Source: a virus (Duplodnaviria; Caudoviricetes). From it: DNA of 64,000 nt. Made by a program: the position numbers and the translations under genes. Under the pieces are notes generated by a model. It saw only the letters and a list, made by a program, of their open reading frames with translations, was not told the origin of the DNA and did no database searches. Where the stretch lies: the IMG/VR virus record IMGVR_UViG_2654587515_000001, positions 15,175-79,174 of that record. One strand, 5' to 3'. Shown in pieces: positions 21,354 to 48,838 of this stretch (the first letter of the stretch is position 1; each line of letters starts with the position of its first letter).

Positions 21354-21917
21354 TCACTCGCACCCAAGCACCCTCGACATGCCCTCAACTACGCTCAGCC
21401 GGATACGAGCCAATGAAAGCTCACGTTTAGCCTGCGCCAGTCCTTCCTCAGCCATTTCCTTGGCTGACGATGACACTTTGGCCTCACTGTGTAGCACGGG
21501 GAGGTCTTTCTCGGTGAAAAACTCCAATACATGCGGCTGAAAAAGTTCAACCGGTGGCGTGGAGTAGCCCTGATGCACCGCTCGTTCGTAAATTCGCTCG
21601 AACTTGTCAGAGTTCGTGTGTTTACAGTAGGTCAGAAACCTATCTCGCATGGTCCGATCGGATACGTTAATCATGACGGCAGCATCATGAATGCGAGCGC
21701 CAAGAAAAATAGACAGGATCGCTTTTCTCGTCTCTTCACCGTAGGGGGAAAGCGTTCCTCCCTTCGCATGAAAAGTTGAGGGCGAGCCATTCTGAATCGC
21801 TTCATTCTCTGAAATCGTGACATCCGTTTCCCTGTGTCCTGCAGACTCAATAAAGCCCGTTCCAAAATCCGATTTCTCAATATGAGTTATCACAGTATGA
21901 AAGTAGTCACCTAGCAC
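21354..21917 (-). CDS. SOS-box-controlled putative DNA-binding protein (HTH-like plus coiled coil)
   Basis: GTG start with AAGGAG RBS; HTH-like GARIHDAAVMINVSDRTMRDRF; LexA box 54 bp upstream. Confidence 0.7.
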   Translation of the reverse strand: MLGDYFHTVITHIEKSDFGTGFIESAGHRETDVTISENEAIQNGSPSTFHAKGGTLSPYGEETRKAILSIFLGARIHDAAVMINVSDRTMRDRFLTYCKHTNSDKFERIYERAVHQGYSTPPVELFQPHVLEFFTEKDLPVLHSEAKVSSSAKEMAEEGLAQAKRELSLARIRLSVVEGMSRVLGCE

Positions 21918-21970
21918 TACGTCTTCTCCTTTTTCTTATTATGGAAGTACAACCTTTGCACCAACATAGA

Positions 21971-21990
21971 TACTGTTTAAATATACAGTA
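21971..21990. promoter_or_regulatory. LexA (SOS) box
   Basis: TACTGTTTAAATATACAGTA = CTG-N10-CAG, near consensus, within a 9-bp perfect inverted repeat AGATACTGT/ACAGTATCT. Confidence 0.85.
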
Positions 21991-22082
21991 TCTTACAGCT
22001 TTTTTATATAAATCAAAGACTCAATAAGGGCGAGTATGCATAAGAACCCGTATGTTGTATGTAGACAAAAACGTCCACAAAC

Positions 22083-22835
22083 CTAACGAATACGGAATGA
22101 GTCGGTCTTGGTGATTAGCTTGGTTGATGAGCAAGTAGACAATAAAGTGCGCAGCTCAGACACGCTGTAGCCGGTCTTATCTCGTATGCGTGCCTTCATT
22201 GATCGAACGGTAGAAGGCGTTACGCCCAGTCTTTCTGCGGCCTCCTTGTCAGAGAGGCCCATGCGCTTACAAAAGATAAGGCGCGTTTCCGTCATGCTTA
22301 GGGGGTTTGCGAGATCGGCAAAATCGGGCACCTTGACGTGCCTAGATTCGGTAACGCGAAAGAAATCATTAATCAAAAATGTGGTGCCCATCAAATTTCC
22401 GTTGAGGTCCACTAACGGGTATTTTTGAGTTTCAATGGTATGCAATTTGACACTACTGCCGAAAAAGTAATCGCAATCTGCAAATACCATAGCTTGGCGC
22501 TCTTCCATAATGAGCTTATCTTGGATGGCATATCCTTGAGCGACTTCATCACTGACACACGTCGGCATTTCTTCTAAGCGCTTACCATAAAAAGCGTAGC
22601 CGCAAGGCAGGTCTACCAGCTCGCGGTAATGGCAATTCATCACAAGGTACTCAGAATCTAGCCCTTTGATCCCCGCCGGCCCAGGATATCGCATCAACTC
22701 AGCCACAAGACAATCACAGAGCACGAACTGGCCCGAGTGGATGCCGTGGTGAATCGACGTATCCTTTCGGGGATAGCATCGTCGACACAGGTGTTTGTTC
22801 TTCTCTAAGCATTCATTATAAGTATTTGCGGCCAT
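22083..22835 (-). CDS. VqmA-like PAS domain plus LuxR-type HTH transcription factor
   Basis: PAS motifs PG..G.K.L.S.Y...N..Y.EL...G....EMP...QD...K.P..D.NGN..GT.F align by eye with V. cholerae VqmA; C-terminal HTH GLSDKEAAERLGVTPSTVRSMKARIRDK. Confidence 0.85.
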   Translation of the reverse strand: MAANTYNECLEKNKHLCRRCYPRKDTSIHHGIHSGQFVLCDCLVAELMRYPGPAGIKGLDSEYLVMNCHYRELVDLPCGYAFYGKRLEEMPTCVSDEVAQGYAIQDKLIMEERQAMVFADCDYFFGSSVKLHTIETQKYPLVDLNGNLMGTTFLINDFFRVTESRHVKVPDFADLANPLSMTETRLIFCKRMGLSDKEAAERLGVTPSTVRSMKARIRDKTGYSVSELRTLLSTCSSTKLITKTDSFRIR

Positions 22836-22935
22836 TCTACCCTCTAAAGTTTTACAAGACCGCCAACTGCAAAGCGTAATTTATATGTTAATTATTATAT
22901 TAATTTATAGTGTAGGCCAATTTCGGACAGTTTTG

Positions 22936-22969
22936 TGTTGATGCCCGTATTTATGTGCCTTGTTACCCT
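22936..22969 (+). promoter_or_regulatory. Putative late promoter (darB)
   Basis: TGTTGATGC-N19-TACCCT. Confidence 0.7.
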
Positions 22970-23031
22970 CCTGATGGACATTATTGTTTGCCCATCAAAA
23001 GGAGGATGGCGAACTTCCCGCCATAAACTGA

Positions 23032-46964: not shown

Positions 46965-46973
46965 TATATATCT

Positions 46974-46998
46974 AAATCCTGTACAATGTACAGGATTT
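46974..46998. promoter_or_regulatory. 25-bp perfect palindrome, copy 1 (operator or recombinase site)
   Basis: AAATCCTGTACA-A-TGTACAGGATTT. Confidence 0.7.
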
Positions 46999-47051
46999 TT
47001 TTAAAAAGGTTGAGCCAAAGATAAAAGCAACTCAGCCAATTGGGACTCTCA

Positions 47052-48230
47052 ATGCAGACACTTACAGTCAGTTTTTCTGAATCATCCGTTAAGCGAGCGC
47101 TAAAAAACGCCGAAGGCTACGAAATCAAGGTTTCGTCAAAGCCCACGGTATTGTTGCGTCCGCATAAAGGGTTAGAGAGGGGAACTTGGTATCTGCGTAA
47201 GGGGGAGAAATATCACCCGCTTGGGGTGTATCCGGTTGTGCCGGTCTCTCTCGTAAAAGAGCGACTGCCTCACATCGTGTTTGACCTCTCGATGAATCCA
47301 GACGCTAAGGTTGAGATTATCAGTGGCTTCCAGAAAGTGACGGATTTACTCAGCTGGTACTGTGAGCGTGCTCAGTCTGACCGCGAGCTATCCAAAAAGC
47401 GCAAGGCGACGGTGAGGTCGGTGATCAACAAGCACCTGATCCCCATGCTGGGGGATAAGCTGATTGACGAGCTGAATCATGCTTGCATTGATGATGCGCT
47501 GATCTGGCCGCTTCAAAGCAAATACTCCCTGTCCAATGTGAGACTGATATTTTCTGCGTTGAAGGCCGCTTTTAAGCTGGCCGCTAAGCAGAACCGTATC
47601 AACGCTAATCCACTGGCTGACCTGCAATTCACCGATTTCATTCAGAAACGCATTAATCCCAAAGATGCCCAGATCAGGGCCGCTGATATTCCGGCGGTAC
47701 TGGCGGCGCTGGTGGACTGCCACTACAGCACCAGAATGCTGATTTTGATGATGCTCCTATTTGGTACCCGCATTGGTGAAACCCGTCAGGCGAAGTGGTC
47801 CCATATTGATGATGATTATTGGCACTTACCGGCAGGCCATACCAAAACCAAGCAATCTCACCGCTTGCCATTAACTGAGCCGGTTAAAGCGTTGCTTGAT
47901 GCATACCGCAATACCCAGAAAGCGAAGGGCTACACGGGGCAATTCCTCTTTCCTAATGACGATCGTAGTGGTCAGTGCGTGCCGGCCAGTACGGCGAGCA
48001 CTCAAATTAAGCGTATTTCCTCTGGGAACTGGACCGCTCATGACCTGCGAAAAGTAGCGCGAACGGTGTGGGCAGACCTGGGGGTGGATTACATGGTAGG
48101 TGAAATGCTGTTGAACCATGCCCTGAGCAAATTGGACAAGACCTACATTCATACTCACGTCGAACACAAGATGAAAGAAGCCCTCAGCCAATACCACGAC
48201 TGGCTAAAAGAGCAGGGCCTTTCGTTCTAA
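47052..48230 (+). CDS. Tyrosine integrase with an N-terminal arm-binding domain
   Basis: GTRIGE (R), HDLRK (HxxR), LNH..SKLDKTY (H, Y) catalytic set; about 392 aa. Confidence 0.9.
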   Translation: MQTLTVSFSESSVKRALKNAEGYEIKVSSKPTVLLRPHKGLERGTWYLRKGEKYHPLGVYPVVPVSLVKERLPHIVFDLSMNPDAKVEIISGFQKVTDLLSWYCERAQSDRELSKKRKATVRSVINKHLIPMLGDKLIDELNHACIDDALIWPLQSKYSLSNVRLIFSALKAAFKLAAKQNRINANPLADLQFTDFIQKRINPKDAQIRAADIPAVLAALVDCHYSTRMLILMMLLFGTRIGETRQAKWSHIDDDYWHLPAGHTKTKQSHRLPLTEPVKALLDAYRNTQKAKGYTGQFLFPNDDRSGQCVPASTASTQIKRISSGNWTAHDLRKVARTVWADLGVDYMVGEMLLNHALSKLDKTYIHTHVEHKMKEALSQYHDWLKEQGLSF

Positions 48231-48259
48231 CCTCCTCAAAATTTCATATCAATTAAAAT

Positions 48260-48284
48260 AAATCCTGTACAATGTACAGGATTT
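48260..48284. promoter_or_regulatory. 25-bp perfect palindrome, copy 2
   Basis: Identical AAATCCTGTACAATGTACAGGATTT, 41 bp upstream of the AphA-like start codon. Confidence 0.7.
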
Positions 48285-48325
48285 TGTTATATGGTGTTTC
48301 CAATTTCCAAAAAAGGAGTGTCGAA

Positions 48326-48838
48326 ATGCTGTTAAATGAATTGCCTATCCACCTACTTTCTCTGCTGTCAGAGCACAAAAAAGCCACCGGTTACGAGCTA
48401 ACCAAAATGATGAGCGAAAGCCGTCTGTGGCGTGCATCCCACCAGCAAATTTACCGTTCACTAAACAAGATGGCCGACGATGGCTTTTTGGTGTTCAAAG
48501 ACGATCCACAAGAGGGCAAGCCAGACCGTAAGGTCTATTCGCTGACCGCTGAAGGGATTGCCAAGTTCAACGAGGCGGTAGAGAGTGCCACCCCTTCAAT
48601 CAAGTCATTACACAGCATTCGCACCATCATGCTGAATGTAGGTAATCAGAAGTACTTTGAAGAGCTGCTGGAACAGCTGAGAGCTGCCATCGAGAAAACA
48701 GAGCAGCTGCTTGAAAAAACGGAAAACCCGTCAGAACGAATCGCTATGCAGCGCGAGATTTACATCAACCGTGCTGAAGAAAGCTATTGCGTGGATGCCT
48801 TGGCATACCTGCAAGAATCCAAGCGCATGGCCGCTTAA
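48326..48838 (+). CDS. aphA: AphA-like PadR-family transcription regulator
   Basis: ATGYELTK...WRASHQQIYRSLNKM...PQEGKPDRKVYS versus Vibrio AphA ATGYDITK...WKASHQQVYRELNKM...PQEGKPDRKVYS; AAGGAG RBS; 170 aa. Confidence 0.88.
   Translation: MLLNELPIHLLSLLSEHKKATGYELTKMMSESRLWRASHQQIYRSLNKMADDGFLVFKDDPQEGKPDRKVYSLTAEGIAKFNEAVESATPSIKSLHSIRTIMLNVGNQKYFEELLEQLRAAIEKTEQLLEKTENPSERIAMQREIYINRAEESYCVDALAYLQESKRMAA

Follow-up and report, generated by a model that had tools for sequence, protein, structure and literature searches.

We analysed a 64,000-nucleotide stretch of the viral record IMGVR_UViG_2654587515_000001 (positions 15,175 to 79,174 of that record; hereafter the window). The element is a plasmid prophage related to phage P1, and it belongs to the p0908/pVv01 family found in Vibrio. 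On its minus strand, a gene for a 250-amino-acid (aa) PAS-domain sensor with a LuxR-type helix-turn-helix (HTH) domain (22083–22835; hereafter the sensor) is placed upstream of a predicted LexA-controlled regulator gene encoding a 187-aa protein (21354–21917), an arrangement that suggests a two-signal switch out of dormancy. We propose that these two genes and the DNA between them may form a two-input induction module responding to the SOS system and to a cue perceived by the PAS domain, a tentative reading to which we give a probability of roughly 45%. A third regulator gene, for an AphA-like PadR protein (48326–48838, plus strand), is on sequence comparison a separate, conserved backbone regulator next to the cre-like gene. 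A previous sequence-only reading of this DNA had described the same three open reading frames (ORFs), and we recover each of them at these positions and on these strands.

Over 12 kb, identity between the window and plasmid p0908 of Vibrio sp. 0908 reaches 97.8%, and identities of 78–98% are seen with plasmids of ~74–97 kb from V. parahaemolyticus, V. campbellii, V. cholerae and V. vulnificus. PHROG and Pfam searches found genes for DarB-, Ulx-, Hdf-, DdrA- and PmgS-like proteins, a portal protein, ParA, a large terminase and a Cre-like recombinase, a gene content that fits the published description of the p0908/pVv01 family as P1-like plasmid prophages (PMC4132613). One family member, pVv01, yields myovirus particles after mitomycin C treatment (PMC4132613), and this inducibility is one of the observations that favor the two-input reading. 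For comparison we used seven PLSDB plasmids of the p0908/pVv01 family, and all seven carry the sensor gene, the 187-aa gene and the AphA-like gene together, with identities of 80–98% for the sensor and 70–99% for the AphA-like protein. The sequence-only reading had proposed such a co-occurrence survey and had also stated that P1 has neither the sensor nor the AphA-like gene; the statement holds in a tblastn search of 50,697 phage records, where matches to the sensor came solely from two V. cyclitrophicus phages and those to the AphA-like protein solely from Vibrio and Listeria phages. The cassette made up of the sensor gene and the 187-aa gene lies inside the dar antirestriction block but runs on the opposite strand. 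It is flanked on one side by the ddrA/ddrB-like genes and on the other by the darB-like gene (23032–30081, plus strand), which is divergent from the sensor gene and encodes a 2349-aa protein.

A predicted LexA (SOS) box, TACTGTATATTTAAACAGTA, is located at 21971–21990, with 53 nt between its end and the start codon of the 187-aa gene. The box agrees with the gammaproteobacterial SOS-box consensus TACTGTATATATATACAGTA at 18 of 20 positions, a match with no more than 3 mismatches was found in none of 100 shuffles, and CTGT-N8-ACAG has no other instance in the whole window. The box is kept in 7/7 aligned relatives despite divergence of the ~50 bp that separate it from the start codon, and this conservation of a unique site further supports the two-input reading. 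A candidate SOS promoter, TTGATT-N18-GATACT (21987–22016, minus strand), lies in a block conserved in the seven relatives, and its −10 element overlaps the left arm of the LexA box. The block downstream of a predicted start at ~22026, comprising this weak promoter and the LexA box, is better conserved than the flanking coding DNA. RNA-library contigs cover both cassette genes, and those on the 187-aa gene end at 21970 and 21959 in two studies; the contigs on this region are short and come from four RNA or possibly-RNA runs, and their ends at the edge of the LexA box are a weak hint of a transcription start there, and weak support for the two-input reading. The segment 21971–22031 is covered by none of them, a gap to which we attach no weight. 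Because the predicted LexA box is canonical, unique and conserved in the family, and because the relative pVv01 is inducible by mitomycin C, we consider an SOS input to the 187-aa gene well supported, and the control by a LexA box that had been proposed for this gene stands as a prediction. A second CTGT-N8-ACAG found in a full-length relative (L010, 2528–2543) has GC-rich surroundings that do not resemble a promoter, and it was set aside as a probable chance match.

Directly after the stop codon of the sensor gene we identified a 20-bp inverted repeat, TGTGGAC-GTTTTT-GTCTACA (22060–22079, minus strand), a candidate operator for the sensor, and at a distance of 21–22 nt from it a −10-like hexamer, CATACT (22033–22038, minus strand), which was recognized by alignment and which presumably functions as part of a promoter. 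Repeat and hexamer follow the sensor gene in each of three distinct phage-plasmid contexts. The perfect repeat is found once per P1-like locus, whether of the window's type (type A) or of a second type (type B; L012–L014), always 3–6 nt after the stop codon, and it is single-copy in the whole of a 79-kb relative; the copies in P2-like elements (L001 and L017) read TGTAGAC-N7-GCTACA followed by CATAAT, which is near-identical and falls outside the strict pattern. When the three contexts are aligned, the half-sites and the motif GCATA(A/C)T are invariant in position. The predicted start near 22026 would put the center of the repeat at ~−43.5, the classical position of LuxR-type class II activators. 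We also considered a terminator at this position; no T-run follows the repeat and the sequence of its half-sites is conserved beyond what base-pairing alone would require, and for these reasons an operator is the likelier function. The recognition helix of the sensor, STVRSMKARIRDKT, is invariant wherever the repeat is kept, and a homologue of 37% identity (L011) has a different recognition helix and no inverted repeat. From these observations we infer that the sensor binds the inverted repeat and activates the promoter reading downstream. Both the correspondence between recognition helix and repeat and the fact that repeat and hexamer travel with the sensor gene at a fixed spacing into three contexts argue for the two-input reading.

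The surroundings of the sensor cassette in other phage-plasmids, where it comprises the sensor gene with its repeat and hexamer, bear on what it may control. In a 41-kb P2-like phage-plasmid of V. cyclitrophicus (L001, PQ189289), positions 5989–7639 contain a sensor homologue of 58% identity together with its inverted repeat, after which come a convergent gene for a 109-aa Xre-type repressor, a LexA box, CTGTGAATATATACAG (7367–7382), and a 76-aa ORF. The cassette is upstream of, and co-oriented with, this LexA-box-controlled 76-aa gene, and the region looks like a P2/186-type switch to which a sensor has been added. The presence of a LexA box near the cassette in a P2-like element indicates that the sensor and a putatively SOS-controlled gene are paired on two unrelated backbones, which, with the neighboring Xre-type repressor gene, supports the two-input reading. 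In the second P1-like variant (L012, 5001–6353; L013; L014), the cassette is located between an MT-A70 operon and an operon for a winged HTH (wHTH) protein, RdgC and TrfA. Here it points into the replicon operon (wHTH protein of 94 aa, 138-aa protein, RdgC, TrfA), which corresponds to the second replicon of the window (38134–40755), and this orientation toward replication genes likewise favors the two-input reading.

The same distribution might also be expected of an accessory (moron) regulator that stands outside the lysis-lysogeny decision, for example one that tunes the dar genes or a host function, with LexA providing expression under stress. The location of the cassette inside the dar block and its differing positions among phage-plasmids are indeed accessory-gene-like, and the 187-aa protein belongs to no known family and is frameshifted in one relative. 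However, the cassette is kept in every family member examined, its P2-like version sits at an Xre-repressor/LexA-box switch, and the other P1-like variant directs it into a replication operon; we regard an accessory role as improbable.

To place the sensor among known receptors, we compared its sequence and predicted fold with those of characterized proteins. Pfam gave sub-threshold matches only, to PAS_4 and several HTH families, and in a phmmer search of all PDB sequences the only real matches were to VqmA (phage VqmA 7dwm, E = 8.8e-6; V. cholerae VqmA 6ugl/6kju/6ide, E ~7e-5). Pairwise, the sensor is 24% identical to the VqmA of phage VP882 (E = 2e-9). The AlphaFold2 (AF2) model of the sensor has a predicted local distance difference test score (pLDDT) of 75.5, with low confidence for residues 1–30, and the eight best PDB matches of this model in Foldseek are all VqmA chains (E = 2e-13 to 2.6e-10), followed by the LOV-HTH protein EL222 (E = 6e-6). 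The sensor thus has the architecture of VqmA, an N-terminal PAS domain and a C-terminal LuxR-type four-helix HTH in ~240 aa, and this architecture, together with its position as nearest relative of VqmA, is in keeping with the two-input reading.

A profile search of 1.84 billion representative proteins returned only 4 matches to the sensor at E ≤ 1e-10, all from phage-plasmid contigs or fragments, and further down a tail of 230–250-aa PAS-LuxR proteins with ~20–28% identity; this result indicates that the sensor lineage is small, phage-restricted and without a chromosomal counterpart. In a maximum-likelihood tree the sensor clade is monophyletic (support 100/100), and its stem is long, at 1.93 substitutions per site. 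It joins the group to which VP882 VqmA and a Vibrio VqmA-type protein belong at a support of 94/93, which falls below the strong-support threshold of the tree tool (95/80) and, given the long branch, calls for caution. The tree suggests that the sensor clade is the sister of the VqmA group. Unlike VqmA, members of the sensor clade carry an N-terminal extension of ~45 residues with a CxxC-X19-CxC motif (residues 17–42 of the sensor; codons at 22710–22787, minus strand), located by aligning homologues. The cysteines are kept in sensor homologues of 59–97% identity, and in L011, which holds the 37% homologue, they are visible upstream of that homologue's annotated start; the motif is possibly a zinc or redox motif. 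A promoter-like site for the sensor gene itself, TTGGCC-18-AATAAT (22891–22920, minus strand), was found by consensus scanning only.

The sequence-only reading had called this protein a VqmA-like receptor, VqmA being the Vibrio sensor of the autoinducer 3,5-dimethylpyrazin-2-ol (DPO), and had supposed that the phage reads host cell density. The first part holds for the fold and for the nearest relatives, and orthology does not: the 24% identity to VP882 VqmA compares with ~43% between VP882 VqmA and V. cholerae VqmA (PMC8284805), so that similarity at the level of orthologues is not reached. These comparisons place the sensor within the VqmA superfamily, where it is divergent and does not count among the VqmA orthologues. 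We then mapped the residues of V. cholerae VqmA that were mutated by Huang et al., who report F67, F99 and K101 as DPO contacts (bioRxiv 10.1101/2019.12.19.881847). K23, Y36, D71, D85 and K101 are kept in the sensor clade, and F67 is replaced by Y, H87 by D, H97 by I or V, and F99 by T; two of the three key contact residues are therefore changed and K101 is kept. K23, D71 and K101 are present in nearly every member of the PAS-LuxR superfamily and thus say little about the ligand. In addition, the G/C-rich palindromic operator of the VqmA type known from PvqmR and Pqtip (core GG-N6-CC or GG-N9-CC), searched as AGGGGGGATTTCCCCCCT, has no match with up to 3 mismatches in the window.

True quorum sensing as in VP882, in which the PAS domain would bind DPO or a close pyrazine analogue and trigger induction at high density in parallel to SOS, nevertheless has points in its favor: VqmA proteins are the closest characterized relatives of the sensor by sequence, fold and tree, five pocket residues are retained and F67 to Y is a conservative change, and the hosts are vibrios, which produce DPO (PMC12802170). 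Against it stand the low identity to VqmA, the exchanges at F99, H87 and H97, the superfamily-wide conservation of K23, D71 and K101, the extra Cys motif, the lack of a GG-N6-CC type operator in the window, and the long branch with its sub-threshold support. We consider this explanation unlikely; DPO sensing by the sensor is possible but unsupported, and sensing of cell density, as claimed earlier, does not find support here.

The product of the downstream gene is an orphan. The gene begins with GTG, in front of which stands AGGAG, and homologues were seen only in Vibrio elements of ~80 kb; the protein has neither a Pfam match nor a PDB sequence match. Its AF2 model (pLDDT 72) combines a core of confidently predicted helices with a C-terminal helix of 35 residues, and when the model was compared with known structures by VIA-align, the twelve top matches were all DNA-binding domains of the GerE/LuxR type, aligned to residues 55–140 and coming from LuxR/GerE/FixJ-type proteins such as DegU, phage VqmA, NarL, RcsB, RhlR, TraR and VpsT. 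A language-model atlas gave only HTH_23/HTH_28-type leads, with scores below 0.9. We describe the protein as having a conserved N-terminal motif, a putative LuxR/GerE-like four-helix HTH (~residues 55–140) and a long C-terminal helix, and we take it to be a dimeric DNA-binding regulator, which might activate lytic promoters or counteract a repressor. Identity as a small terminase was rejected, since the window encodes the large terminase TerL at 59095–60813 with a PacA-sized ORF upstream and since the fold matches of the 187-aa protein are LuxR/GerE domains; that the protein models as an HTH regulator and is not a small terminase adds to the case for the two-input reading. Paralogy of the two cassette proteins was likewise rejected, because the 187-aa protein has no similarity to the DNA-binding domain of the sensor. 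A segment overlapping this gene (window positions 20000–21606) is 98% identical to 1.6 kb of the Alteromonas macleodii plasmid pAMBAS45 (NC_018680); the match spans the 3′ part of the ddrB-like gene and stops within the 187-aa gene, which suggests a recombination remnant common to both genera.

Taken together, these features can be arranged into a circuit. The sensor would bind the 20-bp inverted repeat behind its own stop codon and, acting from ~−43.5 in the manner of LuxR-type activators, would turn on a promoter that reads downstream from a start near 22026. The resulting transcript would cross the LexA box, which overlaps a second, weak promoter, and would then reach the gene for the 187-aa protein, a putative LuxR/GerE-like HTH protein with a coiled-coil tail. 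LexA would repress the proximal promoter and, relative to the distal one, would occupy positions of about +36 to +55. Host LexA, reporting DNA damage, and the PAS sensor, reporting a small-molecule or redox cue, would in this way converge on one effector gene, whose product may start or license lytic development. The analysis itself shows the genes, their homologies and predicted folds, the motifs and the conservation of these features; the DNA binding, the activation, the ligand and the link to induction in this scheme are all inferred.

Several observations weigh against such a two-input module. Both predicted promoters score below the threshold of the consensus scanner, and a repeat lying across the −35 position could also be a site of repression. 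No LexA box lies beside the cassette in the second P1-like context. The convergence that had been proposed for the sensor and SOS inputs gains in plausibility from the portable repeat and predicted promoter that point through the LexA box into the 187-aa gene; the LexA association is the part that does not carry over to this second context. For the 187-aa protein, a Foldseek search of the model against the PDB returned nothing significant, and the VIA-align matches, though mutually consistent, have Z-scores of 5.4–5.8, under the trust level (Z below 6); the HTH-like character noted earlier for this protein has its backing in these weak LuxR/GerE-type matches and not in Foldseek. A role of the 187-aa protein in induction is a guess. 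In V. vulnificus p48/10 (L002, NC_025128), moreover, one extra nucleotide near position 5140 (CACCAATG, compared with CACCATG in V. cholerae pSA7G2) splits the counterpart of the 187-aa gene into two annotated ORFs; this insertion may be either a real frameshift or a sequencing error. Finally, a scan of part of the ORFs, from 64 of ~79 kb, turned up no homologue of the C1 master repressor on which an effector might act, and the 17-bp operator consensus of P1 has no match with up to 3 mismatches in the 64-kb window. With no C1 found, lysogeny in Vibrio P1-like phages may be controlled by another system.

The AphA-like gene is preceded by an AAGGAG ribosome-binding site, and the PGAP annotations of the relatives share its start. 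Its 170-aa product matches PadR in Pfam (E = 1.8e-13, 50.7 bits), and among PDB sequences it comes closest to AphA of V. cholerae (1yg2, E = 3e-20). Over its N-terminal 104 residues it is 44% identical to a 179-aa Vibrio PadR protein with a PF10400 domain, which we take to be AphA, an identity not checked against 1yg2. The recognition helix, WRASHQQIYRSLNKM, and the wing, GKPDRKVYS, are near-identical in the two proteins. The C-terminal domain has no detectable similarity to that of the 179-aa protein and no match to PF10400 (Vir_act_alpha_C); close homologues carry PF03551 only, and it is the more distant 179-aa Vibrio PadR proteins that carry PF10400. The description of this gene as an AphA homologue is thus borne out for the PadR winged helix and not for the C-terminal domain.

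Conceivably, the AphA-like protein imitates the AphA of the host and thereby fixes or displaces its low-cell-density regulon: the recognition helix and wing are almost the same, the diverged dimerization domain would prevent mixed dimers, and the gene is kept in all relatives. AphA-like PadR genes are, however, widespread on Vibrio plasmids and in SSP002-like siphophages, and the PF10400 match is lacking, and we think that mimicry of the host regulator by the phage protein is quite unlikely. The AphA box is ATATGCA-N6-TGCATAT (PMC3440409), and sites resembling it are not enriched in the phage DNA, to which the scan was confined (2 observed versus 3.3 expected with up to 3 mismatches, and 19 versus 23 with up to 4). 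As a separate observation, a core, TATGCATA, at 22023–22053 resembles two overlapping AphA-box half-sites and overlaps the predicted −10 of the repeat-dependent promoter in the sensor cassette; it is kept in the P1-like locus A family and is statistically not significant.

A different set of sites lies close to the AphA-like gene itself. Between divergent promoters in front of the Cre-like gene, at 46974–46998, there is a 25-bp perfect palindrome, AAATCCTGTACAATGTACAGGATTT, which the V. cholerae and BoB-90 relatives also have; a second, identical palindrome at 48260–48284, a candidate operator, is located 42 bp upstream of the AphA-like start codon. The pair brackets the gene for the Cre-like tyrosine recombinase (47040–48230, plus strand), which has a Phage_integrase Pfam match, and no third copy was found. 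The sequence of the palindromes is kept in relatives whose AphA-like proteins are only 70–84% identical and whose flanks have diverged. They are unlike the AphA box. They could be operators, perhaps for the AphA-like PadR protein, or, as T-runs follow them, bidirectional terminators. Plasmid p0908 is the source of the VCre/VloxP system (PMC3082901).

These palindromes bear on the possibility that the AphA-like protein is an internal phage regulator, perhaps a maintenance repressor that replaces C1 and acts at the twin sites. PadR proteins commonly autoregulate, and the identical palindromes upstream of the protein's own gene and of cre, kept despite diverging flanks and present in no third copy, would suit such a role, as would the failure to find a C1 homologue or operator and the absence of enrichment for AphA-box-like sites. 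On the other side, the half-site is unlike the AphA box even though the protein has nearly the same recognition helix and wing as AphA, and the T-runs behind the palindromes leave room for terminators. We regard internal regulation by the PadR protein as less likely than not. The most elaborate combination, in which a phage-only, VqmA-like receptor with an added metal- or redox-binding Cys motif senses a host autoinducer and together with LexA gates, at tandem promoters, a LuxR-type master activator of lysis in circular P1-like and P2-like phage-plasmids while an AphA mimic sets the quorum state of the host, seems very unlikely; it would make quorum-eavesdropping a portable cassette common to unrelated phage backbones.

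Two further observations concern neighboring genes. Directly after the AphA-like gene, a gene at 48888–49898 encodes a YejK-like nucleoid-associated protein (E = 1e-140 to NF001557), which also scores weakly against a family of nucleoid-associated anti-phage proteins. The ORF directly upstream of the large terminase gene (57933–59105, 390 aa) resembles P1 PacA in size and position. PacA has reportedly not been identified in p0908 and pVv01.

So far, the linear plasmid phages of the VP882 type and a small number of other phages are known to eavesdrop on bacterial signals. In the literature searched, VqmA-type phage receptors are placed only in VP882-like linear plasmid phages (PMC12802170), and reviews of phage-plasmids name only VP882, arbitrium, and the LexA-dependent GIL01 and N15. 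We found no description in the literature of the sensor cassette in P1-like or P2-like Vibrio phage-plasmids. If our reading is correct, a second, deeply divergent receptor lineage, which moves with its own candidate operator-promoter between P1-like and P2-like circular phage-plasmids of several pathogenic and marine Vibrio species, would broaden the picture of phage eavesdropping. It would also provide a simple system in which to study how a chemical cue and DNA damage are combined at one promoter, and because pVv01 is inducible and plaque-forming, the model is directly testable.

Comparison with known systems shows which elements of the cassette have precedents. For the Dar, Ulx, PmgS, portal, Par and Cre functions the window has the genes of phage P1 in matching order, and it shares the plasmid-prophage lifestyle; it differs in that no C1 homologue or operators were found in the window, which points to another lysogeny-control system in Vibrio P1-like phages, and in that P1 has no homologues of the sensor, the 187-aa protein or the AphA-like protein. 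Vibrio AphA (1yg2; PMC3440409) is likewise a PadR winged-helix protein with a near-identical recognition helix and wing, whereas the gene described here is phage-borne, lies beside cre, encodes a diverged C-terminal domain and is associated with palindromes unlike the AphA box. A single LexA box in front of a small phage gene is also known from Tum of coliphage 186, the Gifsy antirepressors (PMC3121763) and the LexA-dependent functions of N15 and GIL01 (PMC11652158); in contrast to the Tum and Gifsy proteins, with which it shares no sequence similarity, the 187-aa protein resembles a DNA-binding regulator and no known antirepressor, and a second, sensor-driven promoter is predicted upstream of its gene. 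Linear plasmid-like phages carry transcription factor–small ORF (TF-smORF) modules (Silpe et al. 2023, PMC10432266), which similarly consist of a portable transcription factor with its target promoter and provide SOS-independent induction, but which are located between repA and telN and drive small ORFs; the present cassette occurs in P1- and P2-like elements, has a larger putative HTH effector and would integrate SOS at the effector gene itself.

The closest parallel is the VqmA-phage/Qtip module of VP882 (Silpe and Bassler; PMC12802170, PMC8284805), in which a PAS and LuxR-HTH receptor encoded by a Vibrio phage-plasmid likewise adjoins its target promoter, here a predicted one, and which likewise has a separate route for DNA damage. 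VP882 is a linear, N15-like element, whereas the cassette described here resides on circular P1-like myoviruses and P2-like elements. In VP882, gp55 and gp56 are divergent and stand beside the protelomerase gene, qtip being located between telN and repA; here the neighbor is co-oriented and the window has no telN. Compared with the VP882 receptor, the sensor has an added Cys motif, no host counterpart and a different candidate operator, TGTGGAC-N6-GTCTACA. The target of the VP882 receptor is the 79-aa antirepressor Qtip, and that of the sensor would be the same-strand gene for the 187-aa putative HTH protein. The SOS route of VP882 runs through RecA-dependent cleavage of cI, whereas in the present cassette a LexA box is predicted at the very gene that the sensor would activate.

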